In this document: piece after piece, positions 9,378 to 43,781 of the stretch
Numbering within the stretch: the stretch's first letter is position 1
Layout: every line of letters begins with the position of its first letter
Assembly: GCA_013426185.1 (NCBI GenBank)
Contig: CP058602.1
Coordinates: 206,873-270,872, forward strand
Reading direction: 5' to 3'
Source: Candidatus Woesebacteria bacterium
GTDB taxonomy: Bacteria > Patescibacteriota > Microgenomatia > UBA8517
Length of the DNA: 64,000 nt
Notes under the pieces: generated by a model
Told to the model about the DNA's origin: nothing
What the model saw: the letters and a program-made list of their open reading frames with translations, nothing else
Databases searched by the model: none
Program-made: the position numbers and the translations under genes

Positions 9378-9462
9378 TATTAATAAAATTATAGCAAAAC
9401 AATTTGCACTAAATATAAAAGCCACAGCTTAAAGCTATGGCTTTTAAAGACGTGGGGGGAAA

Positions 9463-9858: not shown

Positions 9859-9980
9859 ATTCTCACCCCCTTTCAAATTAAATATAACACAAGACAACTT
9901 AAGCGCAATAGCAAGCGATCACAATCTCTCGTAGAATAATTTATCCGTATACACGAATGCAAGTTGGATAAAAAATTGCG

Positions 9981-10056
9981 GGCGGGGCTGACGGGACTCG
10001 AACCCGCGACCTTCCGCGTGACAGGCGGACGCTCTGACCAACTGAGCTACAACCCC
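9981..10056 (-). tRNA. tRNA-Asp (anticodon GTC)
   Basis: The minus strand reads GGGGTTGTAGCTCAGTTGGTCAGAGCGTCCGCCTGTCACGCGGAAGGTCGCGGGTTCGAGTCCCGTCAGCCCCG. It has a 7-bp acceptor stem, a CTGTCAC anticodon loop and a GGTTCGAGTCC T-arm. CCA is not encoded. Confidence 0.85.
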
Positions 10057-10131
10057 AACAAGCTTATTTTATCATAAAAGATAAAAACAAAAAATACATT
10101 AAGGACAAGATCTCCCAAAAAATCATTGCTC

Positions 10132-10160
10132 TTGACAGAAACGAGTTTTTAATCTAAATT
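10132..10160 (+). promoter_or_regulatory. Sigma70-like promoter for the LysM gene (TTGACA - 17 nt - TAAATT)
   Basis: TTGACA at 10132-10137, a 17-nt spacer and TAAATT at 10155-10160, about 60 nt upstream of the start. The strong SD AAGGGGGTGA at 10204-10213 precedes the TTG start. Confidence 0.4.
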
Positions 10161-10219
10161 CAACCTTAGATTAAAACCTGCTTTTCTCCTGCCCCAGAAA
10201 GATAAGGGGGTGAAAAAAA

Positions 10220-10765
10220 TTGGACCTCAAAAAAACACTTAAAACATTAAAACTTAATGAATCAACCATCAGTACTATTCTTGGTGTTATTGTTATTATC
10301 TTTGCCGGCGTTTTAGTTTTCAATTACCTTAAAAAAGGTAAGCAAGGTTCAACAGTTCCTGCAACAAATACCCAGATTGAAGAAAAAGAGGAAAATCAAA
10401 ATAACAAGAAAACATACACTGTTAAAAAAGGACAATCATTATGGATGATTGCAGAGGAAGTTTATGGATCAGGTTATAACTGGGTGGATATTGCCAAGGA
10501 GAATAATATTAAAAACCCAAATCTCATCAAAGAGGGGCAAGAATTAAAAATCCCTGCAGTCGAGGCTAAGATAGCCAAAACAACAGACGAGGCAAAAGAA
10601 AAGATCACAGGCGGCACTTATACAGTAGTTAAAGGCGATAATCTTTGGGAAATAGCAGTCAGAGCTTATGGAGATGGTTATAAATGGGTTGAGATTGCAA
10701 AGGAAAACAAGCTTGCCAATCCAAACTTAATTCATGCCGGAAATGTTTTAAGACTGCCGCGCTAG
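10220..10765 (+). CDS. Membrane-anchored protein with two LysM peptidoglycan-binding domains
   Basis: An N-terminal TM helix is followed by two LysM repeats (YTVKKGQSLWMIAEEVYG...LIKEGQELKIP and YTVVKGDNLWEIAVRAYG...LIHAGNVLRLP). The apparent start is TTG with a strong SD, and there is no in-frame ATG nearby. Confidence 0.75.
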   Translation: MDLKKTLKTLKLNESTISTILGVIVIIFAGVLVFNYLKKGKQGSTVPATNTQIEEKEENQNNKKTYTVKKGQSLWMIAEEVYGSGYNWVDIAKENNIKNPNLIKEGQELKIPAVEAKIAKTTDEAKEKITGGTYTVVKGDNLWEIAVRAYGDGYKWVEIAKENKLANPNLIHAGNVLRLPR

Positions 10766-10808
10766 TATTGCCAAAGCACCAGATTTTTCTTATAATGAAA
10801 GTGTTTTT

Positions 10809-10883
10809 GCAGCGGTAGTTCAGTGGTAGAATGTCTCCTTCCCAAGGAGAAGGTCGCCGGTTCAAATCCGGTCCGCTGCTCCA
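10809..10883 (+). tRNA. tRNA-Gly (anticodon CCC), CCA encoded
   Basis: GCAGCGGTAGTTCAGTGGTAGAATGTCTCCTTCCCAAGGAGAAGGTCGCCGGTTCAAATCCGGTCCGCTGCTCCA. Anticodon stem TCTCC/GGAGA with loop TTCCCAA. The acceptor stem pairs perfectly. Confidence 0.85.
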
Positions 10884-10886
10884 AGT

Positions 10887-11078
10887 TTACTTTTCTTTCA
10901 ACTCTTTCTTCAAAAGCTTTAAAGTTTCTTTTTTAGTCTCCTCAAGGCTCATACCCCAAACTTTGGCCATATGGCGAAAGTCGTCTTCAGTCAAAGAGCC
11001 GCCGCCTTTTGAAACTTTGCCTTTACCCATATCATCCTCAGGCAAACCGCAGCCACAGTTATAACACATAGAAATCAC
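10887..11078 (-). CDS. Small Cys-rich hypothetical protein (63 aa, CxxCxC near N-terminus)
   Basis: The ORF fills the gap between tRNA-Gly and the next gene: MISMCYNCGCGLPEDD...TEDDFRHMAKVWGMSLEETKK. No recognisable family. Codon usage matches neighbouring genes. Confidence 0.35.
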   Translation of the reverse strand: MISMCYNCGCGLPEDDMGKGKVSKGGGSLTEDDFRHMAKVWGMSLEETKKETLKLLKKELKEK

Positions 11079-11107
11079 CTCCTTTACAATAATATATAAT
11101 AAGAAAG

Positions 11108-11827
11108 ATGAAAATTAAATTGTTAAAAAAGAAAAAGGAGGGTAAAGATATAAAATCCTTCATTTTTGAAAAACCTAAAGGTTTCAATTTTAAACCTGGT
11201 CAGTTTATCTATCTCACTCTACCCAAGCTTTTTTTTGACGATCAAAGAGGAAATACAAGGCACTTTACCATTGCTTCATCTCCAACAGAAGAACACCTAA
11301 TGATAACCACAAGAATAAGAAAAGAATCAGGTTATAAAAGAACACTTGATAAAATGCAAAAAGGAGATTTGATTAATTATCGCGGCCCCTTTGGAGATTT
11401 TATCCTTGGAAAAGAAAAAAAAGAAACACAAGTTTTTGTAGCAGGAGGAATTGGCATAACCCCCTTTAGAAGTATTATCAAATATCAGATTGACAAAGGC
11501 TATAAGACTCCGATGCATTTGATCTATTCTTGTTCAACCACCGAGGAGATTGCTTTTCGAAAAGAACTTGAATGTTGGGAAAAAGAAGGAAAAATAAAAC
11601 TTGATATCACCATTACTCACCCTGAAGAGTCAAAAGAAAAATGGAAAAAGTTAACAGGAAGGTTAGACCATAAAATTCTTAAAAAGCTAACCAAAAATTA
11701 TGATCTTAAAAAGACCAGTTTTTGGCTTTGCGGTCCTCCCCCTTTTGTCTCTGCAATAGAGATTGAAGTTGAAAAATTAGGAATTAAAGAAAGAAACATC
11801 ATTACAGAAAAGTTCTCAGGATACTAG
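11108..11827 (+). CDS. FAD/NAD(P)-binding oxidoreductase (ferredoxin-reductase-type FNR fold)
   Basis: RHFTIASSP (the RxYS FAD motif) and FVAGGIGITPF (the NAD(P) GxGxxP motif), in a 239-aa two-domain layout. Confidence 0.7.
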   Translation: MKIKLLKKKKEGKDIKSFIFEKPKGFNFKPGQFIYLTLPKLFFDDQRGNTRHFTIASSPTEEHLMITTRIRKESGYKRTLDKMQKGDLINYRGPFGDFILGKEKKETQVFVAGGIGITPFRSIIKYQIDKGYKTPMHLIYSCSTTEEIAFRKELECWEKEGKIKLDITITHPEESKEKWKKLTGRLDHKILKKLTKNYDLKKTSFWLCGPPPFVSAIEIEVEKLGIKERNIITEKFSGY

Positions 11828-28482: not shown

Positions 28483-31445
28483 TTTTCACTTAGAATCTCT
28501 ACTCTAAAAGCATTATCCTTTAATATCTTAGAAGAAGAACTTTTTTTCAATATCATTTGCAAGAATTGTTTATCTTTAGGCAACCAAGGCGAATAGACAA
28601 TTGTCGGTTGAGTAAAGGAAATATTCATTTTCTTTCTCTCTTCTTGAATCTTTCTTAACAATTCCCTAGCTTTCGCCTCCTCTTCTAATTTAGGGGTAAT
28701 TTTTGTGTTCAATTCTACCAACTCTTCTTTTGCAAACTTAAAAACCAATCTCTTCACATTTAATTCATCTTCTGCTATCTTAAACAAATCCATGCTTAAT
28801 TTTTCAAATCTTTTATCAGGGGACATAACAATAGCTTCAATAAGAGGCTGGCGAACAGGAATTCCCAACTCTTTTCGCTTAGCATGCACTTTCTCAACAA
28901 TATCTCTTAAGTAGACCATATCCTCAACTAAATTCTTTTCACCATCAAGAAATGCGAAATCAATATGCGGCCATTCAGAAAGGTGAACCGATTCTTTCTT
29001 GGTCAAATTGCAATAAATCTCATCACTGATAAAAGGAGTAAAAGGGGCAAGCAAACGGCTTAGAACTTCCAAAACAAGGTAAAGTGTTTGATAAAAAGCT
29101 TCTTTGGAAAGCTTATCCTCAGCCAAGAATCCAACTCTATCTCTTGATCGTCTTAAATACCAATTAGAAAGATCGTCAACAAAAACTTCAATCAAACCAC
29201 TAGCTGTTGCGGCATCATAACGATCCAGATTCTCTGTAACCTCTTTAACCAAGTCCTCAAGTCTAAGCAAAATCCATTTATCTAAAACTGATAAATCCGC
29301 TTCTTCTATTTTTCCGCCTGGTTTCCAGTTATCTATGTTGGCATAGGTCACAAAAAAGTTATAGACATTCCAAAGCTTAAGATGAAAGCGGCGTCTTGTC
29401 TCATCAGCTAATCTATACCCAAAAAGAAGATTTTCAGAGACATTTTGGCGCGCATAAATCCAGCGCATTACATCAACACCCATCTTTTCCGCACCCTCAT
29501 TGAATTCTATGAAATTACCCCAGGATTTATGCATCGGCCTTCCATCTTCAGCCAACAGAGTGGCAAAACCCAAAACGGTCTTGGTTGGATTTTCATCCTC
29601 AAGCACAGTGCTCATTGCAATCAAAGAATAAAACCAATTTTTAAACTGACCAGGGAAACTTTCGGTAATAAAATCAGCCGGGAACCATTTTCGCCACTCA
29701 TCTTTATCAACTAGATATAAAGGAGCAGAATGATTGTCTTTGCTAATAGTTGAAAAGGATACAATACCAGCGTCAAGCCAAGGATTGCCAACAGGCTCAA
29801 TTCTTGACATAATATTGCCGCACTTTGGACATTTTATCTTCACAAAATCTATCTGCGGCTTATGCGGGGACTTGCCTTCAAATTTTTCCCAGCCAGAGAC
29901 AGCTTTTTCCTTAAGTTCTTCTTTTGAACCAATTACCTCAAAATGGCTACACTCCTGGCACTCCCAGATTGGCAGAGCTAAACCCCAATATCTATTTTTC
30001 TTACTAATCAACCAATCACTCATATTCTTAAGCCAATCAATCTCACGTTTCAGGCCAAATGATGGAATCCATTTTATTTTCTTTGCCACCTTCATCATTC
30101 TTTCTCTTAGAGTTAATCCACGAGATGGGCCTTTTTTTGTGGGTTTATCCATAGCTATATACCACTCATCTGTCACCTTCCAAACAAGCTCCTCCTTACA
30201 ACGCCAACAAACAGGATAACGATGTTTATAAAGAAATTTATCAAAAACCCAATTCTCAGCTTTCTTTTCCCTACCTTCAAGATAATCAAAAATAATTTCT
30301 GGGTGTTTTTTCGCATTTTTACCAGTCAAAAACCCTAGACCTTCTTTATAACTTGCATCATCATTAATAACTGGAATCATTGGCAAATCAATCTTCTGAC
30401 CAAGTCGATAATCCTCAGTACCAGCACTAACAGCAGTGTGAACAAGCCCTGTTCCCTCCTCTGTCGTAATAGGCATTATAAGATCGTCAGTCGCCACCAC
30501 CGTATGAAACTTTGGATGAGATGAAACTTTTTTAACAGCAGGCAAATCATCAAAAGCGCTATCATAATGAAGTCCTACCAATTCCGAGCCTTTAACCACT
30601 TTTTTAATCGGCTTTTTATCAGTCTTAAAAATTCTTTTGATACAATCTTTTGCCAACCAATAAAGATCACCAGAATCTCCTTCAACCAAGGCATAATCCA
30701 AATTTTTATCAACAGCAACAGCTACATTAGCAGGAATAGTCCAAGGTGTAGTTGTCCAAACCAAAAGATACTCATTTTTTCTGTCCTTGATAGGAAATTT
30801 AAGAACAATAGACATATGAGTAATTTCTTTATAATCCTCAGTCAAAATTTCATGCTGAGAAATAGCAGTCTCACAACGAGGGCACCAAGGAACAGAATCA
30901 TTCCCTTTATAAATCCATTCGTTTTGATAACACACTTTCAAAAAGTGCCAAATCATATAGTTATTCTCTTCACTCATTGTGTAGTAGGAATGATCCCAAT
31001 CCATAAAATAGCCCAAGCGCTTGGATTGCTCCGTTTGAATTTGGGAAAACTTGAGGACTCTTTCTTTACACTTTTCTACAAACTTCTCCACCCCATATTT
31101 TTCTATATCCTTTTTAATCTTAAATCCGAGCTCTTTTTCAACTTCTACTTCTACCCAAAGACCCTGGCAGTCAAAACCATTTTGGAATCTCTGCTTAAAT
31201 CCTTGCATATTTTTATATCTCTGCCATAAATCTTTGTAAGTCCTTCCCCAAGCATGGTGAACCCCCATTGGATTATTAGCAGTAATAGGCCCATCAAGAA
31301 ATGAAAAATATTTCTCAGAGTTTTTATTCTTTTCGCGGTATTTTTTCTCAATATCTCTCTTCGACCATTCCTCAAGCAATTTTTTTTCCATCTCTTGAAA
31401 AGAAGTTCTGGGGTCAACTGGTTCAAAATAATTTTTAGGCTTCAT
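28479..31445 (-). CDS. ileS: Isoleucyl-tRNA synthetase (archaeal/eukaryote-like type 2)
   Basis: 988 aa. GPITANNPMGVHHAWGRTYKDLWQRYKNMQGF (the HIGH region), WLISKKNRYWGLALPIWEC (a WCISRQ-like motif), PMHKSWGN (KMSKS-like) and zinc knuckles CPRC and CWRC. ValRS cannot be fully excluded. Confidence 0.7.
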   Translation of the reverse strand: MKPKNYFEPVDPRTSFQEMEKKLLEEWSKRDIEKKYREKNKNSEKYFSFLDGPITANNPMGVHHAWGRTYKDLWQRYKNMQGFKQRFQNGFDCQGLWVEVEVEKELGFKIKKDIEKYGVEKFVEKCKERVLKFSQIQTEQSKRLGYFMDWDHSYYTMSEENNYMIWHFLKVCYQNEWIYKGNDSVPWCPRCETAISQHEILTEDYKEITHMSIVLKFPIKDRKNEYLLVWTTTPWTIPANVAVAVDKNLDYALVEGDSGDLYWLAKDCIKRIFKTDKKPIKKVVKGSELVGLHYDSAFDDLPAVKKVSSHPKFHTVVATDDLIMPITTEEGTGLVHTAVSAGTEDYRLGQKIDLPMIPVINDDASYKEGLGFLTGKNAKKHPEIIFDYLEGREKKAENWVFDKFLYKHRYPVCWRCKEELVWKVTDEWYIAMDKPTKKGPSRGLTLRERMMKVAKKIKWIPSFGLKREIDWLKNMSDWLISKKNRYWGLALPIWECQECSHFEVIGSKEELKEKAVSGWEKFEGKSPHKPQIDFVKIKCPKCGNIMSRIEPVGNPWLDAGIVSFSTISKDNHSAPLYLVDKDEWRKWFPADFITESFPGQFKNWFYSLIAMSTVLEDENPTKTVLGFATLLAEDGRPMHKSWGNFIEFNEGAEKMGVDVMRWIYARQNVSENLLFGYRLADETRRRFHLKLWNVYNFFVTYANIDNWKPGGKIEEADLSVLDKWILLRLEDLVKEVTENLDRYDAATASGLIEVFVDDLSNWYLRRSRDRVGFLAEDKLSKEAFYQTLYLVLEVLSRLLAPFTPFISDEIYCNLTKKESVHLSEWPHIDFAFLDGEKNLVEDMVYLRDIVEKVHAKRKELGIPVRQPLIEAIVMSPDKRFEKLSMDLFKIAEDELNVKRLVFKFAKEELVELNTKITPKLEEEAKARELLRKIQEERKKMNISFTQPTIVYSPWLPKDKQFLQMILKKSSSSKILKDNAFRVEILSEK

Positions 31446-31492
31446 AGATTAGAGCTATTTTACTACGAAAAAAAACTAAAAAGAAGAAGAAA

Positions 31493-32650
31493 TCAATGAA
31501 TCTTTCTCAAAAAAGCTGGAATTTCAAACTTTTGTCCGAAAATATCAGAATCTTCATCTGACGCTTGTGGAAACTCTTTCATTTCTTCCCCCTCCGTTAA
31601 TTCTTCTTCCTTACTTGTTTTAAGAGTTTCGCTGATAATACCTTCTATTTTAGTTTCATTGCCAACTTTAAAAAAACTAGCTAGTCTTGACTGTGTTTCA
31701 TCAAAACCCGTGGCAATAACCGTAATTTTTACCTGATCATTGAGATCATTTTTAACAACCGCACCAAAAATAATATTGGCATCAGCATCTGCTGACTGAG
31801 AGATAATTTTTGCAGCCTCGTTTACTTCAAACATTGTCAGATCATTTCCACCTGCAATATTGAAAAGAACCCCTCTTGCGCCTTCCATCGAAAGATCCAA
31901 AAGCGGAGAAGAAATAGCTGCGCGAGCAGCCATCTGAGCTCTGTTTTCGCCAACTCCAGTACCAATACCAAGAAGAGCGGTACCTGCGTCTTTCATTATT
32001 GTCTTCACATCAGCAAAATCAACATTAATAAGCCCCGGAGTGGTAATAATATCAGCAATTCCACCAACAGCCTGCGACAAGACCGAATCTGCTAATTTAA
32101 AAGCCTCAACCAAGGTCATCTTTTTATCAATAACATCCATCAAACGCTGGTTGGGAATAACTATTAGAGTATCTACCTCTTGGCGCAACTTCTCAATTCC
32201 CTCCTCAGCAATCACACTTCTTCTTGTCCCTTCAAAAGCAAACGGCTTTGTAACAACACCAACCGTCAAAGCTCCAGCTTCACGAGCAGCTTTGGCTATA
32301 ATGGGTGAAGCTCCAGTACCTGTTCCACCACCCATTCCAGCTGTAACAAAGACCATATCAGTGTCTATCAAAAGTTCCTTTATCTTTTCTATTGATTCTT
32401 CAGCCGCTTGCCTACCAATTTCAGGGTTTCCGCCAACTCCTAATCCTTTAGTTAGCTTTTCTCCTATTTGTATCTTTGTAGGAGCTTTATTTTGAAGAAG
32501 GACCTGAGCATCGGTATTAACCACTATAAACTCAACGCCATTAATCAGATCTTCTTCCACCATCGAAGAGACGGCGTTTCCACCACCACCACCCACGCCT
32601 ACAACTTTGATTTTTGCTATTCTTGCCTCATCGGGTTTTACTAAAGCCAT
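31493..32650 (-). CDS. ftsZ: Cell division GTPase FtsZ
   Basis: [14 protein letters not shown] and the [13 protein letters not shown] tubulin signature, with a C-terminal conserved peptide DIPAFLRK. Confidence 0.95.
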
Positions 32651-32705
32651 AAATTATTATAGGCAGATTGTATAACAGAAGGCAAATAAACACAACTGCC
32701 TCAAG

Positions 32706-33980
32706 TTAGGGCAGAAGATTCCTAATAGACTCAAAGATCTTATTAAAAGTTCCCTTACCTGGTAATTTAATTTTTTTACCCATTTTTGTCAATGCCTCAT
32801 CACTTGTTTGGTGCGAAGCATAAAGAATAAGACCAATCGCAACTGCATACTGTGGAGATAAAATATCGTCAATCAACCCACTAACACCAGTTGGTACTCC
32901 GATCCTTGCCGGAAGTGAAAGAACTCTTCTTGCGCTTTCAATTATACCAACTGTCTCTGCTCCTCCACCCGTTATGATTACACCCGAAGGAGTTTTTCCC
33001 AAGAGGCCAAACTTATCAAGCTCAAGTCTCACCATACTAAAAATTTCATTCAAACGAGGCCTAATAATTCCTTCCACCAAAGTTTTGCGCGAGACCTTCT
33101 TCACTTCAAGATTTTCCTTACTTAAATCAAGACTATCAGGCAAGGTTATCTCTTCTGTTTTATCCTTCCTTTTTTCATAATTAGAAAGCAACAGTTTAAT
33201 TTTCTCCGCTGATTCAAGGGAAATTCTTAGCCCAATCGCTAAATCGTTGGTAACATTTTTAGCGCCAATTGGTACAACCCCAGAATAAGCAAGAGCGCCT
33301 TCCACAAAAACACAAATTGAAGTTGTCCCTCCTCCTATATCAACCACGACGCAACCAAGCTCTTTCTCGGTAGCGGTAGCTACAGCCTCAGAAGCTGCCA
33401 GACCGCTAAAGACAATTTCGGAAATACCAACTCCCGCTTCATCCACAGCCTTTTTTAAGTTTTTAACTGATGCCGTTGAAGCTGTTATTACATGGGTTTC
33501 AACCTCAAGCCTAACTCCAGTCATACCAACTGGGTCTTTGACGCCACCCTCTCCATCAACAGTAAACTCGCGAGGAATAATATGCAAAATTTCCCTTGAA
33601 ACAGGCAGAGAAATAGCAGAGGCTGCATCAATCACACGCTCAATATCAACATCCTTTATCTCACCATCAGGATCTGAAATAGCTACCACTCCATGCGAAT
33701 TCTGAGAAGAAACACTCGCCCCACCTAAAGAAATATAAACCGAATCAAGATTATAACCCGCCATTCTTTCTGCTGATTCAACACTCTCCACTATCGATTC
33801 AACAGCCTCCTCAATATTAATGATCTGGCCTTTTCTTATACCACGCGAGGCAACAGAAGAAACTCCCACAACTCCAATTCCACTTTCATAGACATCTTGA
33901 GAAGAATCAATCTGCGCAATAATCGTGGTTATTTTGCTTGAACCTAGATCTATAGCTGAAATTATTTTTGACCTTGTCAT
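32706..33980 (-). CDS. ftsA: Cell division protein FtsA (actin-like ATPase)
   Basis: 424 aa: ISAIDLGSSKITTIIAQ, VVVDIGGGTTSICVF and IITGGGAETVGI. Confidence 0.9.
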   Translation of the reverse strand: MTRSKIISAIDLGSSKITTIIAQIDSSQDVYESGIGVVGVSSVASRGIRKGQIINIEEAVESIVESVESAERMAGYNLDSVYISLGGASVSSQNSHGVVAISDPDGEIKDVDIERVIDAASAISLPVSREILHIIPREFTVDGEGGVKDPVGMTGVRLEVETHVITASTASVKNLKKAVDEAGVGISEIVFSGLAASEAVATATEKELGCVVVDIGGGTTSICVFVEGALAYSGVVPIGAKNVTNDLAIGLRISLESAEKIKLLLSNYEKRKDKTEEITLPDSLDLSKENLEVKKVSRKTLVEGIIRPRLNEIFSMVRLELDKFGLLGKTPSGVIITGGGAETVGIIESARRVLSLPARIGVPTGVSGLIDDILSPQYAVAIGLILYASHQTSDEALTKMGKKIKLPGKGTFNKIFESIRNLLP

Positions 33981-33981
33981 T

Positions 33982-34674
33982 TTATCTTAGAATAGGATTT
34001 TTATATCTTAAGTCTATTGTAATATTATCATACGACTTATCAACCTTGAATTTTTCATAATTTTCCTCAAGCTGGCTAAGTAAGAATCTACTTGCACCAA
34101 CTAAATATTCTCTGTCCTTACCTTCTTTAGGCAAAACCAAAATAGGACCTGCAAGCATCTTAACTTCAAGTCTATCATCAAAAAGTTTAGCGTAATTAAT
34201 TTTATACAAATAATTAAGATAATAAAATAGCGACATAGACATTAAAACATCTTCAGGTACTTTATCACCTACCTTAAAATCGTAAGCATCCGTTTCTAAA
34301 AAAGAAATATCTGAAAGATTATCCCTTCTTGCTAAAACCTCTCCTTTCTCGCTTATCAAATAAAAGGAATTACTTTTTGTATTCTTCAGAACATAACTAG
34401 ATTTCCGCAAGATGATGTTCAAAATTAACTTTGAAGGAAAAATAAAACGACTATTGTAAGAAAAAACTAAACTGTTTCCCTTAAGAATCTTGTCAACTTC
34501 TCCCCTCGTTTTAAAATAAGGTTTTCCTTTCAGTCCTTCAAGTTGAGAGGCAATTTCAGAAGGGCAATCTCTATCAGAAATAAAACAAGACACCTCTTTT
34601 ACTTTTAAAAAATAAGGCAAAAGAAAAATCAAAAATAAAATTAAAAATAAAGACGAATAGATTACCTTAACCAT
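33982..34674 (-). CDS. FtsQ/DivIB-like cell division protein (TM + POTRA-like)
   Basis: 230 aa with an N-terminal TM helix, in the ftsQ position between murG and ftsA. Sequence similarity is weak. Confidence 0.5.
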   Translation of the reverse strand: MVKVIYSSLFLILFLIFLLPYFLKVKEVSCFISDRDCPSEIASQLEGLKGKPYFKTRGEVDKILKGNSLVFSYNSRFIFPSKLILNIILRKSSYVLKNTKSNSFYLISEKGEVLARRDNLSDISFLETDAYDFKVGDKVPEDVLMSMSLFYYLNYLYKINYAKLFDDRLEVKMLAGPILVLPKEGKDREYLVGASRFLLSQLEENYEKFKVDKSYDNITIDLRYKNPILR

Positions 34675-35773
34675 GGGCTACTTTTTCAACAAGATCAACA
34701 AAATTACTGGCAGCATTGATATCGGGACTAATTTTATCCTTACTTTTTCTAACATAAACTTCCCAATTAAGATAGATGTCTTCGATTTCTTCAAAAAGCC
34801 TTTTACTTGAAAGTTCATCTTGCTTCAACACTTTGGCGATACCAAATTTTTTGGCAAAAATTGCATTTTTAGTCTGTTCATCAAGATAGGAAAAAGGTAT
34901 GGGAATTAATATTGCTGGCCTTTTGACCACCATAATCTCAGCCACGGTATTTGCTCCCGCTCTTGCTACAATCATATCTGCTCGCCTATAAACTCCATCT
35001 ATTTGCATAGGATCAATCAGAGAATAAACTTCATATCGCGAGGCAAGTTCGGAAGATAACTTTTCTTTCAACTTTTTAAAATCAAGATAATCAATCAATC
35101 CCGTTTGATGAATTACATAAAACTTTTCAAGGAGATTCTTTAATATAGGTTTTAAAGCTTCATTGACAACCTGTGAACCTCTAGATCCGCCGGTAACAAA
35201 GAGCACCGGTATTTTTGACATCTTCTCTTTTGCCGGCACTTCAAGAATCTGAGTCATAACAGGGTTTCCCACAACCACCGACTTTGAAGAGCCAAAGTGC
35301 TTTATACTCTCCTTTCTGGCAAGAGCAACCTTATTTACAAAAGGCAAAGAAAAAAGATTAGCCCTACCAGCCGCAGCTGTCTGCTCATGAAGTAAAGAAG
35401 GAATTCCCAAAAGCTTGCCAGCCAAGACTACGGGAAAAGCAGCAAAACCGCCAAAAGAAACAATAACATCCGGTCTTGTTTTTATTACCAGATATAAGGC
35501 ATGCAAAAGACCAAACGGTATTTTCAAAAGAGACGGAATTGTCCATAAAGTAAATCTGCGCTGCAATCTGCCCATTCTAATAAAATATGTCTTAATCCCC
35601 AATTTAGAGAAGTGGACTGATTCTAAAGTAGGTATTTCCCTGCCTTCAAATGCATTTTTGACCCCAATCCAATAAATCTCAAGAGGTTTATCTTGATATC
35701 GCCTTATAATCTCTTCAACAACAGCTATTGCTGTAGTTGCAGCATGTCCTCCAGTCAGAACAATCTTTCTCAT
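34667..35773 (-). CDS. murG: UDP-GlcNAc:lipid I N-acetylglucosaminyltransferase MurG
   Basis: MRKIVLTGGHAATTAIAVVEE, a GT28 N-terminal G-loop, and a C-terminal FVTGGSRGSQVVNE. Confidence 0.85.
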   Translation of the reverse strand: MRKIVLTGGHAATTAIAVVEEIIRRYQDKPLEIYWIGVKNAFEGREIPTLESVHFSKLGIKTYFIRMGRLQRRFTLWTIPSLLKIPFGLLHALYLVIKTRPDVIVSFGGFAAFPVVLAGKLLGIPSLLHEQTAAAGRANLFSLPFVNKVALARKESIKHFGSSKSVVVGNPVMTQILEVPAKEKMSKIPVLFVTGGSRGSQVVNEALKPILKNLLEKFYVIHQTGLIDYLDFKKLKEKLSSELASRYEVYSLIDPMQIDGVYRRADMIVARAGANTVAEIMVVKRPAILIPIPFSYLDEQTKNAIFAKKFGIAKVLKQDELSSKRLFEEIEDIYLNWEVYVRKSKDKISPDINAASNFVDLVEKVAHG

Positions 35774-36909
35774 CTTCTCTTTAAAACAGATCTTTTCTTA
35801 AATCTTTTTAAAACCGATCTTTCTTGCCTATATCTTGATATATTCAAGATTATACCAGTTGACGCTAAAAGCATCACCAAAGATGAACCTCCATAGGATA
35901 TAAAAGGAAGGGGGATACCAGTCAGCGGTGTCAGAGCTGTCATAGAACCTAAATTCAAGAGGACTTGAACACCAATCCAAACAACAAAGCCAAAGGTAGC
36001 GACCTTGGAAAAAGTGTCAGGCGATGAAATCGCGATCTTGAAACCCCGATAGATAAGATAGACAAAAAGAAAAATCAAGACTAAAGAGCCAAGAAAACCC
36101 ACTTCCTCAGCAATAACTGCAAATATAGAGTCAGTGGCTGCTTCAGGTAAAAATAAATATTTTTGTTTAGATTCCCCCAAACCAACTCCAAATAGTCCGC
36201 CCAAACCCAACGAGATTAAAACTTGAGTTATATGATAACCATGGCCTAAGGGATCAGCGGTCTGCTCAAGAAAAGTCATAAGTCTTGCACGGCGATAATC
36301 AGAAGAAATAATTAAAACAACTCCGAAAAACAAAGAGGTTAGAACCAAAATAAAAAAATAAAAAACATTAACACCAGAAATAAATATCTGAAAAATACCA
36401 ATTGCAGCTACCACAAGAGTAGTACCCAAATCAGGCTCAAGCATAATAAGAAAAGACACCAAAACAAGAGGAATTACAAAAGACAAAAGACCTTTCTTTA
36501 ATTCTGAAAGCCTGGCAAAATAAAGTACTAAAGCAAACTTAATTAGCTCTGAAGGCTGAAAACTAAAAGAACCAAAATTTAACCACCTCCTAGCGCCTAA
36601 CGACTTAATTCCAAAAGCAGGAACAATAACTAAAATCAAAGCTAAAACACTTAAGAAAAAAATAACGCTGGCATAACGAAACCAAAATTTATAATTAATT
36701 TTTGAAAACAGAACAAATAGAACAATACCAACCAAAGACCAAACTAGTTGCTGTCTAGCAAAATAAAATCTGTTGTTAAAAAATTTAAGAGCTTGAGGCG
36801 CCGAAGCGTCAGCGATAAAAAGAATGCCGAGTAAAGTAAGGGATAAAACCAATAAAGCAAACTGCCAATCTGCACCTGTTTTTACCTTTTTATTAACCGA
36901 AGAAAGCAT
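35770..36909 (-). CDS. ftsW: SEDS-family lipid II flippase/polymerase FtsW
   Basis: 379 aa, 10 TM helices, in the dcw position between mraY and murG; GIPLPFISYGGSSL. Confidence 0.8.
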   Translation of the reverse strand: MLSSVNKKVKTGADWQFALLVLSLTLLGILFIADASAPQALKFFNNRFYFARQQLVWSLVGIVLFVLFSKINYKFWFRYASVIFFLSVLALILVIVPAFGIKSLGARRWLNFGSFSFQPSELIKFALVLYFARLSELKKGLLSFVIPLVLVSFLIMLEPDLGTTLVVAAIGIFQIFISGVNVFYFFILVLTSLFFGVVLIISSDYRRARLMTFLEQTADPLGHGYHITQVLISLGLGGLFGVGLGESKQKYLFLPEAATDSIFAVIAEEVGFLGSLVLIFLFVYLIYRGFKIAISSPDTFSKVATFGFVVWIGVQVLLNLGSMTALTPLTGIPLPFISYGGSSLVMLLASTGIILNISRYRQERSVLKRFKKRSVLKRR

Positions 36910-36931
36910 AAATTAGATTAATAAACCCAAA

Positions 36932-37990
36932 TTAAATAGTAGAAAGCCAAAGAGCAAAAATTGCAAGTATAAGTCCTGCAAGCCAAGCTCTTGTTACTAT
37001 TTTCGGTTCCTCCCATCCACGAGCCAAAAAAATATGATGAGCCGGAGCTATCAAGAAAACTGGTCGTTTGAGAAACTTCCAGCCCAATATTTGAATTGCA
37101 GAAGTAGCTGTCTCAATAAGATAAATAGCACCCACTAAAAAAAGAGCAAAGACAGAACCCGTCAAAAGACCAATGACAGCAAGAGTGGCCCCAAAAGAAA
37201 GAGCTCCCGAATCCCCAAGGAATATTCTTGCAGGCCAAATATTAAAATACAAAAAGGCAATAAGAGAACCTATCCACAAAGCAATGAAAACTGAAAGAGG
37301 AGTGTCAAGGTTACCGCTTGCAATAACTGCAAAAACAGCCAAAGAAATAACCAAAAGTCCGGCAGCCAAACCATCAAGCCCATCGGTGATATTATAGGCA
37401 TTGGAAAAAAGGACAATCAAAAAAGCCGCAAAAGGGATATACCAAAATCCTAAATTGAACGTAATATCAAATAAAGGGATGTGAATTATTTTAATACCCA
37501 TCTTAAAATACAATAAAAATGAAATTGCAAATGCCAAAACCCATTGAAGAGCAAATTTCTGCATTCTGGTCAAACCATAGACTACTCCCAGACCAGCTCT
37601 ACCTTTACCAAAAATTTTAACTAAATCGTCAAGCAATCCCAAAAAACCAAAAGACAAAAAAGTAAAAGCAATTACAAAAATCTCATATCTTAAGTTGTAA
37701 GCGCTTCTAATATAAACTCCCATACGAGACGAAAAAGGAAAAATTAAAGTAAAAAGCAAAAACACGACCAGAATAATCAAAACTCCACCACCAACAGGAG
37801 TTCCAGCTTTTATATCATGTAGTTTGTCAAAAAGCGGAACTTTGCCCTTTTTAGGGGCTTCTTTCCTGCGCTGAAGTTTAAGCTTATAGAGCAAGTTGAT
37901 AAAAGGCACCACAAGAAGACTTGTAATGACAAAAGAGAAAATGACCAGTCCTAAAAAAAGTGTCAAATAATTATTCATAATTAAGAACAA
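36932..37990 (-). CDS. mraY: Phospho-N-acetylmuramoyl-pentapeptide transferase MraY
   Basis: NAYNITDGLDGLAAG, FLGDSGALSFGATLAV and a 10-TM topology. Confidence 0.9.
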   Translation of the reverse strand: MFLIMNNYLTLFLGLVIFSFVITSLLVVPFINLLYKLKLQRRKEAPKKGKVPLFDKLHDIKAGTPVGGGVLIILVVFLLFTLIFPFSSRMGVYIRSAYNLRYEIFVIAFTFLSFGFLGLLDDLVKIFGKGRAGLGVVYGLTRMQKFALQWVLAFAISFLLYFKMGIKIIHIPLFDITFNLGFWYIPFAAFLIVLFSNAYNITDGLDGLAAGLLVISLAVFAVIASGNLDTPLSVFIALWIGSLIAFLYFNIWPARIFLGDSGALSFGATLAVIGLLTGSVFALFLVGAIYLIETATSAIQILGWKFLKRPVFLIAPAHHIFLARGWEEPKIVTRAWLAGLILAIFALWLSTI

Positions 37991-38205
37991 GAGACTATAA
38001 CGTAATCATCAACTGGTAAGACTCTTTTATTGCTATCGACCAAACACCCTTTATTGTTTAGCGGACAACGACACACACCCTCTTTAGTATCATGGTCAGT
38101 CTCTACAACTTTGCCATCTGAACTGCAAGGATCAATAGTAGGTTTACGACTAACCCTATAAACATCATAGCTACAAACACTAAACATTTTTTCAGCTTTA
38201 GTCAT
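37981..38205 (-). CDS. Cys-rich 74-aa protein of unknown function embedded in the dcw operon
   Basis: MTKAEKMFSVCSYDVYRVSRKPTIDPCSSDGKVVETDHDTKEGVCRCPLNNKGCLVDSNKRVLPVDDYVIVSCS has 6 Cys. The ORF exactly fills the murE-mraY gap, and its stop overlaps the mraY start by 10 nt (translational coupling). Confidence 0.45.
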   Translation of the reverse strand: MTKAEKMFSVCSYDVYRVSRKPTIDPCSSDGKVVETDHDTKEGVCRCPLNNKGCLVDSNKRVLPVDDYVIVSCS

Positions 38206-38223
38206 AAACTCTTTTATTATAAA

Positions 38224-39459
38224 CTAACACACCACCGGTTTACCATAAGTTGGTAAAATGCCTCGAAGTGATTCTCTCACTGCCTTTTTTTCAGACCATT
38301 TGTACTCGGTTTTGCCAAAACACAAGCTTTCCTCATGACCTTTGCCGCAAATTACTACAGTATCACCTTTTTTTGCCAATTCGTTTATTGCAAAATAAAT
38401 AGCTTTGCCACGATGTTCAACTTCAAAAACTTGAACTTGAGAACTTTTTATACCCTTTCTAATTTCGCGATTTATTGCACTAATTGACTCGCCTCTTGGA
38501 TCCTCAGCTGTTAGAATTATTTTATCTGCCAATTTACTAGCTACTTTCCCCATTAATAGTCTTTTGGTCTTATCTCTTTCACCAGCGCTGCCAAAAACAA
38601 CTATTAAATTTCCTTTTCCTTTTGTTTTGGATAAAAATTTTAACAATTCTTCTAAAGCATTCGGTGTATGAGCAAAATCTACTATCAATTTTAGACCTTT
38701 ATAATTTGTAATATAATCCAATCTGCCTTCGGGGGTCCTGAGTTTCCCTATAATATTTTCTATCTTGGTATAGGAAATTCCCAACCTATGGCAAGCTACA
38801 GCTGCCAAAGCCAAATTTTCCCTATTATATTCTTGAGTAAATTTTTTATACACAGCCTTTTTTAAACTATAAGGCAAAGAGGAAATGCTCACAAAACTAA
38901 CTTTAAGTTTTTTGTTCTTTATAAAATGAACAAATTGTTTGTACTTTTTATTTATTATAGCTACTTTAGATCTATTAAAAAGCTTAGCCTTAGCTAAGGC
39001 ATATCTTTCCATAGTTAAATGATAATCAAGATGCTCATGAGTAATGTTGGTTAAAACAGAAATATCAAAATTTATCCCTAATACCCTATGTTGATCAAGA
39101 CCGTGAGAAGTTACTTCAAGAACTAAAAACTCGCTATCAGCATCTTTGGCATCGGTAATCAACTTTTGCAGAGTTTTGGAATCAGGCGTAGTTGTATGTA
39201 AACCGGTTTTGATCTTTTTGCCTCCTATGATAGCTCCTGTTGTTGAAACCAAGGAGACCTTCTTACCTACTAATTTCAAAATTTGGTGTATCAAAAAAGA
39301 GGTGGTAGTCTTACCATCCGTACCGGTCACGCCTATTACTTTTAAGTGTCTTGAAGGAAAATGATAATAGATATTCCAATATATGGCTTCAAAAAAGTGA
39401 AGAGTATTCTTATAGCGAGAAATAAAAAATCTTCTTAAATTATTATATCTATTTATCAT
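38224..39459 (-). CDS. murE: Mur ligase, MurE-like (UDP-MurNAc-tripeptide synthetase)
   Basis: The P-loop VIGVTGTDGKTTTSFLI, then TTPDSKTLQKL (the MurE-type TTP motif), LEVTSHGLDQHRV and NITHEHLDYHLTMERYALAKAKLF. Start placed at the internal ATG (MINRY) so that it does not overlap ftsI. Confidence 0.65.
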   Translation of the reverse strand: MINRYNNLRRFFISRYKNTLHFFEAIYWNIYYHFPSRHLKVIGVTGTDGKTTTSFLIHQILKLVGKKVSLVSTTGAIIGGKKIKTGLHTTTPDSKTLQKLITDAKDADSEFLVLEVTSHGLDQHRVLGINFDISVLTNITHEHLDYHLTMERYALAKAKLFNRSKVAIINKKYKQFVHFIKNKKLKVSFVSISSLPYSLKKAVYKKFTQEYNRENLALAAVACHRLGISYTKIENIIGKLRTPEGRLDYITNYKGLKLIVDFAHTPNALEELLKFLSKTKGKGNLIVVFGSAGERDKTKRLLMGKVASKLADKIILTAEDPRGESISAINREIRKGIKSSQVQVFEVEHRGKAIYFAINELAKKGDTVVICGKGHEESLCFGKTEYKWSEKKAVRESLRGILPTYGKPVVC

Positions 39460-41176
39460 CCGGGTGAATGCCGTAAAACAAAAACAAGTCTTTTGCGATA
39501 TTATACCAAAGGGGAGCTGCCGTTTCTGAGGCCCAAGGAGAAGAAGAAGGTTCTGACAAAACAACAAGCATCACAAACTTGGGATCATCATAAGGAGCAA
39601 AACCGATAAAAGAAGCCATCGTCTTTTCAGGATCATAATGACCAGCTATCGGAATTTGAGCTGTGCCAGTCTTGCCTGCAACTTTAAATCCTTTAAGATA
39701 TGTCCATTTTGACTCTCCGTTTTTGGCAGCCTCAACCATCATTGCCGTTATCTCAAGTGCTGCTTTTTCACTAATTACTCTTCCTTCAGTCTGAGTCTTG
39801 ATATCTTTATTAACTCCATCAATCAACACTTTATCTACCACAACCGGCTTAACCATTATTCCTCTATTGGCTATTGCTCCCACCGCTTTAACCAATTGAA
39901 TTGGTGTCACCGCTATACCCTGCCCAAACGAGGCCGTTGCCAAATCAACATCACTCCACTCATTCCTATTTCTTAAAGGAGGAGCAACCTCTCCTTGCAA
40001 ATCAATACCTGTTAATTTTCCAAAACCAAATCTATTTAAATAATCAAACATTTTTTCCTTATCCAATCTAAAGGCAACAAAAGACATTCCAACATTGTCA
40101 GAATTAACTATTACCTGAGTCATTGTCGAATTAGGATTATATTTATTATTCCAAGTATTAATGAAATACTTATCAATTTTCAGAGGACCACCGCAAATAT
40201 CACATTCTGTCTCAGGACGAACCACACCAGCATCAAGAGCGGAGGCCATAACAATCACTTTAAAGACTGATCCCGGTTCAAAAGAATTAGAAATAGCTGG
40301 GTTCTTAAAGACAGAGTTATCGTATTTAAAATAATAAAAGGGATCATAAGAAGGGAAAGAAGCCATCACTTTGATTGCTCCAGTTTTAGGTTCCATAACA
40401 ATAACAGTTCCTCCCTTAGCTCCATATTTTTCAATTCCTTCCTTGAGTTTTTGCTCTACCATTATCTGCAAGCCCTTATTAATATGTGTTTTTAAATCAA
40501 CACCTTCTTGTGCTCCTACTTCCCTCAACCAATCCGAAAAGACAATCCCCCCCAAAGCATCTTTTTGCCTCAAGATATAACCTTTCCTACCTGATAATAT
40601 GGAATCGTAATAACCTTCAATCCCAAAATATCCCTTATCCAAACCATTTTCATCTTTGCCAACAAAACCTAAAATGTGAGCAGAGCTTGAAGCCTCAGGG
40701 TAGACTCTTAAATCCTGCTCTTCAAAACCAATGCCTGAAATATTCATCGCTTCAATATTTTTCTTAGTCTCGCTGTCAATTCTTGATGCCAAGGCAACCC
40801 AATTAATGTCCTTATTTGATAATAAATTCACTATCTTCTGTTTCAGTTCAGACAAAAAATTGCCTTTACTTTCCCCTTCATTCTCCTTCGAAACCAAAAA
40901 TGGAACCAAAGAAGAAGCTATCTTTTCAAAACTCTCTTTGACTTCAGGTTTATAAGCATAAACTAACCACCCTTCGGTAGTTCCAGCTAGGTAAGAACCA
41001 TCGTCTGCTAAAATCTGGCCTCGAGGAGCTGAAACTTCAGTTTGGTGCTGATATTGGCCTTTAGCTCTTTCTTGTAAATCACGAGCTTTAATAACCTGCC
41101 AAAAGAAAAGTCTTAAAATAATTGCCAAAAATGAAAGCCAAAAGAAGATACTAATGATTCGTATGCGCGAATCCAT
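39449..41176 (-). CDS. ftsI: Penicillin-binding protein 2B / FtsI transpeptidase
   Basis: 575 aa with an N-terminal TM helix and dimerisation domain, then a transpeptidase domain carrying GSVFK (SxxK), SDN and KTGTAQ. Confidence 0.85.
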   Translation of the reverse strand: MDSRIRIISIFFWLSFLAIILRLFFWQVIKARDLQERAKGQYQHQTEVSAPRGQILADDGSYLAGTTEGWLVYAYKPEVKESFEKIASSLVPFLVSKENEGESKGNFLSELKQKIVNLLSNKDINWVALASRIDSETKKNIEAMNISGIGFEEQDLRVYPEASSSAHILGFVGKDENGLDKGYFGIEGYYDSILSGRKGYILRQKDALGGIVFSDWLREVGAQEGVDLKTHINKGLQIMVEQKLKEGIEKYGAKGGTVIVMEPKTGAIKVMASFPSYDPFYYFKYDNSVFKNPAISNSFEPGSVFKVIVMASALDAGVVRPETECDICGGPLKIDKYFINTWNNKYNPNSTMTQVIVNSDNVGMSFVAFRLDKEKMFDYLNRFGFGKLTGIDLQGEVAPPLRNRNEWSDVDLATASFGQGIAVTPIQLVKAVGAIANRGIMVKPVVVDKVLIDGVNKDIKTQTEGRVISEKAALEITAMMVEAAKNGESKWTYLKGFKVAGKTGTAQIPIAGHYDPEKTMASFIGFAPYDDPKFVMLVVLSEPSSSPWASETAAPLWYNIAKDLFLFYGIHPDDK

Positions 41177-41181
41177 AGTAA

Positions 41182-41520
41182 TTAAGGGAGTTTAGCTACT
41201 GCTTTCTCACCTTCAAGGTAAACAATGTTATCTAATTTATAAAAACCTCTCTCCTCTGCTTTTTTAGCTAGTTCAAGCAACGAATCTCCTTTAACAAGCT
41301 TGTCTTCTAGCTCTTTTTTCTCCAAAACTAATTTTTTCTCTTCTAAATTAAGAGAGGCCATTCTAGAACTCGCTAAGGCAATTTGAACAGCAAAAAGAAC
41401 GCTTCCAACAATAGACACCAAGAAAACTATGGCCAAAGCAAATCTTAATCCAAATACACCAATAGTCAATTTTCCTTTATTAAAATTTCTTCTTTGCGGA
41501 TGTCTTTTAAAATTAATCAT
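41182..41520 (-). CDS. ftsL: FtsL-like cell division protein (TM + coiled coil)
   Basis: 112 aa with one TM helix (LAIVFLVSIVGSVLFAVQIALA) and a following coiled coil, in the ftsL position between rsmH and ftsI. Confidence 0.55.
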   Translation of the reverse strand: MINFKRHPQRRNFNKGKLTIGVFGLRFALAIVFLVSIVGSVLFAVQIALASSRMASLNLEEKKLVLEKKELEDKLVKGDSLLELAKKAEERGFYKLDNIVYLEGEKAVAKLP

Positions 41521-42428
41521 ATTTTCTCAATAACTCTTAACCTTGCACTCCTTGAGCGAGGATTTGCTAATATCTCATCCTCAAAAGGTGCGATCGGTTT
41601 CCTAGTTAATAAATTACCAAGACCCCTGTCTCTTAAACTTTCAAAAAAATCCTTAACAATCTTATCTTCACCAGAATGAAAACTAATTACAGATAGCCTC
41701 CCTCCCTTCTTAAGAAGAGAAAAAGAATCGGGCAAGGCTGATTTAAGATTTTCAAGCTCACTGTTAACTGCCATCCTCAAAGCCAAGAAAACTTTGGTTG
41801 CAGGGTGTAATTTTCCCTTTTTTAAACTAAGCTTATCTATCAATTCCAAAAGATCTTTTACCTTTTCAAAGCTTTTCTTCTTCCTAGTCTCGGTCACCAA
41901 TCTTGCAATTCTCCTTGATAGATTCTCATTTAGGACCACTTCAAAAAGACTTGTCAGCTGACTTTCGCTTAGAGTATTGAGTAAATCAGACGCTTTAATC
42001 TCACTAATCTCTCTCTCAAGCCTCATATCAAGCAGGCTTTCAGGATACCTAAAAGAAATGCCATAAGAAGGAGAATCAAGTTGAAAACTTGAAACACCCA
42101 AGTCAAAAATAATTGCGTCAACTTCTACAAAATTTTCCTTCTCAGCGATGTCTTTAATATCTCTAAAATTTCCCTGAACAAGCCTAAAGCTTAATCTACT
42201 TCCACAAAAGCCAGATACCACTTTTTCTGCTTCTTTTATGGTCTTAGGGTCAATCTCAATACCCAAAATATCCAAATTCAACTCAGTCATCAGCCTCTCA
42301 TAACCTCCAAGACCAAAAGTTGCATCTATCAGCTTGCCTCGTAATTTTGAATGTGCGAAACGAGAAAGGTTTAATAAATCAATTAGCCTTTCTGCTAAAA
42401 CCGGTTTATGTAAAACCTCTTCTTTCAT
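41517..42428 (-). CDS. rsmH: 16S rRNA m4C1402 methyltransferase RsmH (MraW)
   Basis: HKPVLAERLIDLL...IDATFGLGGY...FDLGVSSFQLD. Confidence 0.9.
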   Translation of the reverse strand: MKEEVLHKPVLAERLIDLLNLSRFAHSKLRGKLIDATFGLGGYERLMTELNLDILGIEIDPKTIKEAEKVVSGFCGSRLSFRLVQGNFRDIKDIAEKENFVEVDAIIFDLGVSSFQLDSPSYGISFRYPESLLDMRLEREISEIKASDLLNTLSESQLTSLFEVVLNENLSRRIARLVTETRKKKSFEKVKDLLELIDKLSLKKGKLHPATKVFLALRMAVNSELENLKSALPDSFSLLKKGGRLSVISFHSGEDKIVKDFFESLRDRGLGNLLTRKPIAPFEDEILANPRSRSARLRVIEKI

Positions 42429-42865
42429 TTTCTTTGTCTTGCGATTGCCTCAAGCATTTTTTCTGACTCCGCTTTAATCTTTGCTTCCTCACTCTCCCAA
42501 ATTAACTTATTCCAAAGCTCAATTCGATCTCCTAAACCTATAAAAACTACTTCATCACCAGGTTTAATTCCTGAAACATCTCTTAAAAATAAAGGCAAGA
42601 CAAATCTTCCCTGTTCATCAAGATCTATTTCACTTGCACTTGAGAAAATAAACCTCTCAGTTGACCTGATTGGTTTGGTCAAGACATCGGTCTTTCGTGC
42701 AAGTCTTGACATAAAAGCTTCCCAACCAGCTCTGCCAACAATCACAAGACATCCTTCATACCAACGTGCGATAAAAATTTTGTCCGTTGTTTCCTGACGA
42801 AATCTTGCTGGCAAAGCCAGTCTCCCTTTCTCGGAAACTTGAGAATAGTATCTTCCTAGAAGCAT
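42425..42865 (-). CDS. mraZ: Transcriptional regulator MraZ
   Basis: 146 aa with duplicated SpoVT/AbrB-like halves (DEKGRLALPARFRQE ... DEQGRFVLPLFLRD). Confidence 0.85.
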   Translation of the reverse strand: MLLGRYYSQVSEKGRLALPARFRQETTDKIFIARWYEGCLVIVGRAGWEAFMSRLARKTDVLTKPIRSTERFIFSSASEIDLDEQGRFVLPLFLRDVSGIKPGDEVVFIGLGDRIELWNKLIWESEEAKIKAESEKMLEAIARQRK

Positions 42866-42916
42866 CTTCTTTTTTTGTTATTTGGGCAGGCATTTTCATT
42901 TGTTTAAAGCTAAATA

Positions 42917-43022: not shown

Positions 43023-43781
43023 TTAAGAAGAGCTCTTTTGAGAAGCAAAAATTCCAATATTCGAAGCTTTCCCTTCATCAATCTTGAGCCAAGAATCACC
43101 TTCCAAATAATAGACAGAGTCTCCTTCCAAAATTACCTTACCAGAGAATTTCTTATCCAAAGAAGCAAAAACACCATAAGGACCGGAAGCAAGGGGAAAT
43201 TGAGGCTTTATCTTAACACCAAAAGTTTCCATAACTACAAAAAAAGCACCTTTGGGCATTTCATCCAAAACATATTTAAACTTTGAATCAAAAGAGGTCA
43301 ATTCACGAGTATCAGAAAGGAGAGCAAAATCGGTTGATAATTTGCCAACAAGCTTTCCCTTATCATCCCTAAACTTTAGGGTCAAAGTCCCATTTTTTAC
43401 TCCTTCATCGAAGCGGTATTTACCAGACGACTCGGAACCCAAAAGTATATCCCTCTCAAAATTTGACTCTGTCAATTTAACCGTTCCAGGCACTCCTTGG
43501 GTTCTGCCATCCGGCAATTGATAAAGAATCTCATAATCTAAAGAAGCTGCTTGAACTTTAATATCCTCTACTTTCAGCTTAAGCCAATGACCATCTTTAC
43601 TGGGAATAAGCGAGGTAAAAGGCCTTTTATCAAAAGGTATTTCAGGCACATTTTCTTCTTGGTCTGATGGCACTTCTTCCTTAACTGAGGCTCTCTTTTT
43701 GACAGTAACTATTGCAAACAGAAGAACTAAAAAACCAATCACTAAAACTAAAAACGGCAGGTACTTTTTAAGCTTTTCCAT
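43023..43781 (-). CDS. Membrane-anchored hypothetical protein
   Basis: 252 aa with an N-terminal TM helix (LPFLVLVIGFLVLLFAIVTV) and a beta-rich extracytoplasmic domain. No family recognised. Confidence 0.4.
   Translation of the reverse strand: MEKLKKYLPFLVLVIGFLVLLFAIVTVKKRASVKEEVPSDQEENVPEIPFDKRPFTSLIPSKDGHWLKLKVEDIKVQAASLDYEILYQLPDGRTQGVPGTVKLTESNFERDILLGSESSGKYRFDEGVKNGTLTLKFRDDKGKLVGKLSTDFALLSDTRELTSFDSKFKYVLDEMPKGAFFVVMETFGVKIKPQFPLASGPYGVFASLDKKFSGKVILEGDSVYYLEGDSWLKIDEGKASNIGIFASQKSSS

Follow-up and report, generated by a model that had tools for sequence, protein, structure and literature searches.

A previously undescribed family of small proteins with four conserved cysteines, with a member encoded between murE and mraY in one Woesebacteria lineage

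Patescibacteria make their peptidoglycan with a strongly reduced gene set and, as observed here, most of their MurE proteins are without the domain by which the enzyme of model bacteria recognises the UDP moiety of its substrate. The window (the whole stretch of DNA analysed here, 64 kb in length, from a Candidatus Woesebacteria genome) contains a dcw operon with one small additional gene, here called X, between murE and mraY. What does this gene encode, and does it share in the work of its neighbours? The X protein is unannotated, probably metal-binding, and repeatedly encoded beside truncated MurE and MraY, and it is a concrete candidate for a part in their organisation or regulation. Should X have no role in cell-wall synthesis, it would still represent a new family of small proteins, one whose fold is predicted with confidence and has no relatives among structures.

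Gene X and its operon

The features of the locus are collected in Table 1. The gene order from mraZ to ftsZ, as given in the initial annotation, is confirmed by Pfam marks and open reading frames (ORFs). The cluster had otherwise been called canonical, and this description does not hold. The genes murC, murD, murF and ddl are missing from positions 1-64000, the entire 64-kb window, and the dcw cluster here is therefore a reduced version. Additionally, MurE is without its N-terminal domain of about 90 aa and has just the two other Mur ligase domains, the middle and the C-terminal one. The leaders of the dcw genes (31400-42900, minus strand) are rich in A and almost devoid of Shine-Dalgarno sequence, and several junctions between these genes overlap by 4-11 nt. 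Just upstream of mraZ, a 252-aa ORF (43023-43781, minus strand) has no Pfam match.

Gene X is a 74-codon ORF that opens with ATG and closes with TAA, and both its existence and its translation, MTKAEKMFSVCSYDVYRVSRKPTIDPCSSDGKVVETDHDTKEGVCRCPLNNKGCLVDSNKRVLPVDDYVIVSCS, are exactly as first reported. The translation contains six cysteines (C11, C27, C45, C47, C54 and C73). Its N-terminus is hydrophilic, not hydrophobic, which bears out the earlier statement that there is no signal peptide, and the product is cytoplasmic, with a mass of ~8 kDa.

The gap between murE and mraY measures 245 nt (37979-38223), and not 215 nt as initially annotated. X starts 18 nt past the murE stop and has an A-rich, Shine-Dalgarno-poor leader like those of its neighbours, and mraY has no Shine-Dalgarno sequence of its own. 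The stop of X had been said to overlap the start of mraY. In fact, the ATG of mraY lies 2 nt further on, and an overlap exists only if mraY starts at an upstream TTG at 37990, whereas public calls use the ATG. The translational coupling proposed along with that overlap is nevertheless plausible, since the 2-nt junction is kept in all strain variants. On the coding strand from murE to mraY there is no promoter-like or terminator-like site, in line with the proposal that X shares an operon with the peptidoglycan-precursor enzymes. Rfam covariance models run on 37700-38500 with E values up to 1 gave no match, hence no known structured RNA in the murE-mraY spacer. Public gene callers report the same X ORF in at least 15 contigs, with the ATG as start. 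Judged by these calls and by its membership in a conserved protein family, X is a real protein-coding gene, translated-looking and inside the operon.

Table 1. Features of the dcw operon and of gene X, in window coordinates
Feature	Coordinates	Strand	Evidence
dcw operon with X: mraZ-rsmH-ftsL-ftsI-murE-X-mraY-ftsW-murG-ftsQ-ftsA-ftsZ	31493..42865	(-)	Pfam marks in public gene calls and ORFs
mraZ	42425-42865	(-)	Operon member
ftsL-like gene, 112 aa	41182-41520	(-)	No precomputed Pfam match in public calls; named by position and size only
murE, N-terminally truncated, 411 aa	38224..39459	(-)	Matches PF08245 and PF02875, not PF01225; TIGR01085 positions 70-471 only
murE-X spacer, 18 nt, A-rich leader TTTATAATAAAAGAGTTT	38206..38223	(-)	Sequence; other operon genes have similar SD-poor A-rich leaders
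Gene X	37981..38205	(-)	ORF and translation; phmmer homologues at E 1e-8 to 1e-4; family HMM 91 bits
Conserved family core of X, residues 25-60, DPCSSDGKVVETDHDTKEGVCRCPLNNKGCLVDSNK	38026..38133	(-)	Invariant or near-invariant columns of the family alignment; holds C27, C45, C47 and C54
Junction TAAttATG: X stop, 2 nt, mraY start	37976..37983	(-)	Sequence; equal spacing in strain variants L001-L009
mraY, 348 aa from ATG	36932..37978	(-)	Pfam Glycos_transf_4; 55-72% identity to MraY of 80 Woesebacteria species
ftsQ-like gene, 230 aa	33982-34674	(-)	No precomputed Pfam match in public calls; named by position and size only
ftsZ	31493-32650	(-)	Operon member

A family of small proteins with four conserved cysteines

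The X family is small, with about 30 homologues (57-90 aa) in a total of some 15 billion proteins. Only two near-identical relatives came from a word-indexed search of 5.8 billion proteins, and an exhaustive phmmer search of 1.84 billion cluster representatives gave 12 further small proteins (57-80 aa; E 1e-8 to 4e-4). With X as the query, the phmmer E values ran from 1.1e-8 for P0005 and 1.6e-7 for P0006 down to 3.6e-4 for P0016. A profile search brought the family up to 21 members. A degenerate, hand-made DNA pattern of the family had six matches, and three loci encoding the domain were newly added through it. Two of these matches, L098 and L101 (GC 62-66%, 47-aa ORF), were discounted as probable chance hits. 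P0003, P0004 and P0012 were likewise discarded as spurious, being long repeat proteins that match the low-complexity stretch HDTKEGVV only. X itself fits into the family through significant similarity to independent small proteins of other lineages. The family is previously undescribed, with a sporadic occurrence in Patescibacteria, and full-text literature searches returned no description of it.

The core of the family reads APCxPDGxVxxxDxDTKEGxCxCx(4-6)CxVDGRNxV and is preceded by a variable N-terminus of about 20 residues. In the alignment, C27, G31, V33, C45 and V56 are invariant, and A25, P26, D37, D39, K41, C47, C54, D57 and N60 are found in at least 90% of the members. The window copy carries A25D and N60K, departures from the consensus at positions that are otherwise nearly invariant, and it contains all four of the family-conserved cysteines, C27, C45, C47 and C54, spaced C-x17-CxC-x4/6-C. 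C11 and C73 are no family feature and vary even between strains. The initial annotation, which described a six-cysteine protein, was thus right on the count for this copy, but the motif of the family is one of four.

The predicted fold of X is all-beta, a small beta-meander. The prediction is a confident one, and the modelled fold is without a recognisable structural relative. A metal ion, most likely zinc, is probably bound by C27, C45, C47 and C54 and would hold this fold together, as suggested by the cytoplasmic location of a protein with no signal peptide and by the pattern of conservation. Neither of the two folds first considered for X agrees with these results. A classical zinc ribbon is contradicted by the C...CxC...C arrangement, in which there is no CxxC pair, by the lack of a zinc-finger Pfam family common to more than one member, and by the lack of a fold match. 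A knottin-like protein is contradicted by the missing signal peptide, by the presence of only four conserved cysteines and, again, by the lack of a fold match; EGF models matched single members only, at E 0.03-0.17.

Known families gave no better match. X alone has no match in Pfam or NCBIfam, 24 members searched against Pfam at E up to 1 matched no family consistently, and the family profile has no match among PDB sequences. PHROGs returned single members only, at E 0.019 or weaker, PADLOC returned none, and the DNA pattern had 0 matches in the viral contigs of IMG/VR; none of the three marks X as a small protein of phages or of anti-phage defence. The SEC-C motif (PF02810) of the SecA C-terminus shares with X a cysteine knuckle of the CxC...C type, and X lies immediately or shortly downstream of secA in three loci. 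However, the spacing of SEC-C is CxC-x8-C[CH], whereas that of X is CxC-x4/6-C with a distal cysteine 17 residues upstream, and PF02810 had no match among the 24 members at E up to 1.

Genomic contexts and variation between strains

Thirteen independent contexts of the family were read, five of them beside murE, three at secA, two at gdh, one at a NUDIX gene and two at a TPR-protein gene. X directly adjoins murE in the first five, in four layouts, and in two of these five it also touches mraY. The layout is murE>X>mraY in the window and X>murE>murF-like>full-length murE in L094/L099. X is divergent from murE-mraY-ddl across a 41-nt spacer in L095, and from murE across a 47-nt spacer in L104. 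In L100, murE and X are divergent by ~60 nt, and X is convergent with mraY, 25 nt apart. Seven of the 13 contexts contain no murE or mraY in the DNA read. Here X follows secA directly (L093 and L096) or lies two genes downstream of it (L103), follows the glutamate dehydrogenase gene gdh (L090 and L105), follows a NUDIX gene (L091/L092), or, on the short contig of L102, is a separate gene that follows one for a TPR protein. In L097, murF and murE are the second and third genes downstream of the X domain, in the order X-domain ORF, GNAT-like gene, murF, murE.

Were the contexts independent, five out of 13 at murE would have a binomial p of 1e-7 to 1e-10, but common descent may break this assumption. 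MraY of the window shares only 27-31% identity with its counterparts in L095 and L100, so the adjacency to murE spans distant lineages. It can also be argued from the four orders and orientations of X at murE that the adjacency has been kept through rearrangements. Read from these neighbourhoods, the link of the family to murE and mraY is recurrent and suggestive. The association with peptidoglycan-precursor enzymes that was first proposed is strengthened in this way, but the proposed tie to the divisome is not: the association is one with murE, and more than half of the homologues are located elsewhere.

Some of these loci have features of their own. In L097, a 789-aa ORF (9373-11742, minus strand) combines a hydrophobic N-terminus, a STAND NTPase, TPR repeats and an in-frame C-terminal X domain. 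In L102 (978-2586, minus strand), the TPR protein and X are separate adjacent genes, and the two loci share a conserved stretch, YHExLPExVDPxxLPLR, ahead of the X core. Consecutive genes in L094 (1731-7322) code for X, truncated MurE, a MurF-like ligase that is also truncated, full-length MurE and a beta-lactamase-like protein, with two MurE paralogues side by side.

The position of X in the window is not shared by its relatives. Among 80 Woesebacteria species representatives, whose MraY is 55-72% identical to the window MraY, none (0/80) has a member of the family within 3 kb of mraY by tblastn or by the family HMM. Synteny and tblastn therefore do not extend the position to related genomes as initially envisaged, and the murE-X-mraY arrangement comes, so far, from only one species-level lineage. 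In the 80 species, mraY-ftsW-murG-ftsQ is conserved, the gene upstream of mraY is variable, and a murE-mraY junction is mostly missing. In five relatives (L010, L030, L050, L062 and L078) mraY comes directly after ftsI; in many more, a different Mur ligase gene stands there. In L013 the order is murE-murF-mraY, with murE and murF both truncated and no X nearby.

Within the species, eight protein haplotypes of X differ at 16 of the 74 positions, with the frame intact and no indels. One double change in sister strains, G53W/C54F, hits a family-conserved cysteine. Between L001 and the window, nonsynonymous and synonymous differences number 5:0 in X and 6:18 in mraY (Fisher p = 0.004); between L002 and the window, they number 9:3 in X and 9:21 in mraY (Fisher p = 0.014). 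The overall divergence of X among strains is 2-5%, not above that of mraY. The evolution of X among close strains is nearly neutral, with a dN/dS near 1. X is under weak or relaxed constraint in this species, though its core is conserved over long evolutionary distances, and the nonsynonymous excess fits a dispensable or decaying gene.

A 667-nt tract over the 3' end of murE, X and the 5' end of mraY is identical between the window (37695-38361) and L004 (4842-5508). The genes flanking it differ by 2-4% between the two, which suggests mosaic recombination between strains. The zero differences in X between the window and L004 were rejected as a sign of selection, since X lies within this tract.

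Possible roles beside MurE and MraY

The reading we put forward, and consider evenly balanced, is that X is a dispensable accessory or regulatory partner at the MurE/MraY step, probably metal-binding. X would be transcribed within the dcw operon, and X and mraY would probably be translated in tandem, by termination and reinitiation at TAAttATG. The protein may bind MurE, MraY or both, as something other than a core enzyme subunit, and would act as an accessory or regulator on the MurE/MraY step of peptidoglycan-precursor synthesis. We infer the metal binding, the physical interaction and the direction of any effect. Against a role at this step stand the seven of 13 contexts that lie elsewhere, the extreme sparsity of the family and its absence near mraY in the 80 Woesebacteria species, the strain changes, including G53W/C54F, and the nonsynonymous excess relative to mraY.

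Helpers of this type are familiar from other bacteria. ReoM and IreB are small regulators of Mur enzymes, and PgsE and CapE are small subunits of Mur-ligase-like complexes. They resemble X in being small, non-enzymatic helpers or modulators, the type of role proposed for X. However, they belong to Firmicutes, show no detected sequence relationship to X, have folds other than that of X, and have no cysteine motif of the X type.

Possible, but on the unlikely side, is that X is a real and conserved metal-binding, redox or nucleic-acid-binding protein whose role is unrelated to peptidoglycan, for example a general stress or regulatory factor. X would then have come into the dcw operon of this species by rearrangement, and its adjacency to murE elsewhere would be a matter of common descent, or of a mobile murE segment that carried X along. 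The contexts at secA, gdh, NUDIX and TPR/STAND genes are consistent with this, as is the free rearrangement of the region upstream of mraY in Woesebacteria, seen in the five relatives with ftsI and in L013. The relaxed constraint on X in this species points the same way. Additionally, the MurE proteins beside X are 43-53% identical as against 27-31% for MraY, which would fit murE and X moving together. However, the four orientations and orders at murE resemble a maintained functional coupling, and would be hard to obtain from a single inherited arrangement.

The role as an accessory partner could also take a more specific form, which we regard as improbable. Here X would be an adaptor of the Microgenomates MurE that lacks its N-domain, a zinc-stabilised beta-module that docks MurE on the cytoplasmic face of MraY or provides substrate recognition in trans. 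If this were true, the last soluble ligase reaction would feed straight into the first step at the membrane, and this would represent a previously unseen organisation of peptidoglycan-precursor synthesis in ultra-small bacteria.

It is very unlikely that X is non-functional as a protein here, whether as a chance-open spacer, as a decaying gene, or as a frame whose translation only delivers ribosomes to mraY. Such a reading would be consistent with the counts of 5:0 and 9:3 among strains, with A25D and N60K in the window and G53W/C54F in sister strains, and with a mraY that has no ribosome-binding site of its own. However, all eight strain haplotypes keep an intact frame free of indels, conservation of the family core reaches across very distant lineages, the ORF has diverged no more than mraY, and most genes of the operon are also without a Shine-Dalgarno sequence.

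The truncated MurE raises a further possibility. The N-domain of MurE, about 90 residues in length, normally recognises the UDP moiety of the substrate (PMC6113224; PMC10214165). In each of the five loci (5/5), the MurE that immediately adjoins X is N-truncated, and in L094 X adjoins the truncated paralogue, not the full-length MurE two genes away. PF01225 is missing from about 106 of the best 120 MurE homologues, all of them similarly short and from Patescibacteria-type sources, with Collierbacteria, Cerribacteria, Microgenomates and Patescibacteria among the source names. The closest MurE relatives, P0037-P0042, have 59-82% identity and are encoded on contigs of 6.7-16 kb. N-truncated MurE seems to be the rule in this group, and full-text literature searches returned no description of it in Patescibacteria. 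The PF01225 domain of MurE and MurF has ~70-90 aa, the same size as X, and this domain is what the adjacent MurE lacks. It even has a faint motif echo, DSR...G...DG against DTK...G...DG in X.

That X is a separate module replacing this UDP-binding domain, as a split or substituted subunit, would agree with the truncation in the five loci, with the choice of paralogue in L094 and with the size and normal function of the missing piece, but we consider it the least credible reading: hhalign of the family against the MurE/MurF N-domains gives a probability of 0.17% over 8 aligned columns, the predicted fold of X is all-beta and its structural matches include no chain of MurE or MurF, L013 has a truncated murE without X nearby, and X has a dN/dS near 1 and has lost a conserved cysteine in strains. 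X thus has no fold like domain 1 of solved MurE and MurF structures, and X as a homologue of a split-off N-domain was rejected on the hhalign result and on the lack of PF01225 among the 24 members. Truncated MurE is common and the X family, at only about 30 members, is rare; most truncated MurE proteins must therefore work without X, and X is not a general missing subunit.

The closest analogy to X as an accessory partner is MurT/GatD, the lipid II isoglutaminyl synthase, in which GatD is the separately encoded partner of MurT (PMC6113224). MurT is a Mur-ligase-family enzyme without the UDP-binding N-domain of ~90 aa, and it contains a Cys4 zinc module whose role is unclear and which is thought to serve protein-protein contacts (PMC6113224). 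The likeness lies in a MurE without its N-domain that is repeatedly encoded beside a small four-cysteine protein. However, the zinc ribbon of MurT is inserted in the ligase, whereas X is a separate gene, and the ligase of the window scores as MurE (TIGR01085, 373 bits, positions 70-471), not as MurT. Neither the MurT ribbon nor GatD has sequence or fold similarity to X, and X is not a member of MurT/GatD or of any other known family.

Among the close homologues of MurE, four proteins of 634-716 aa (P0063, P0110, P0120 and P0151) are fusions of the ligase with an additional domain, a nucleotidyltransferase (PF00483/PF12804). These fused proteins occur with or without the normal N-domain.
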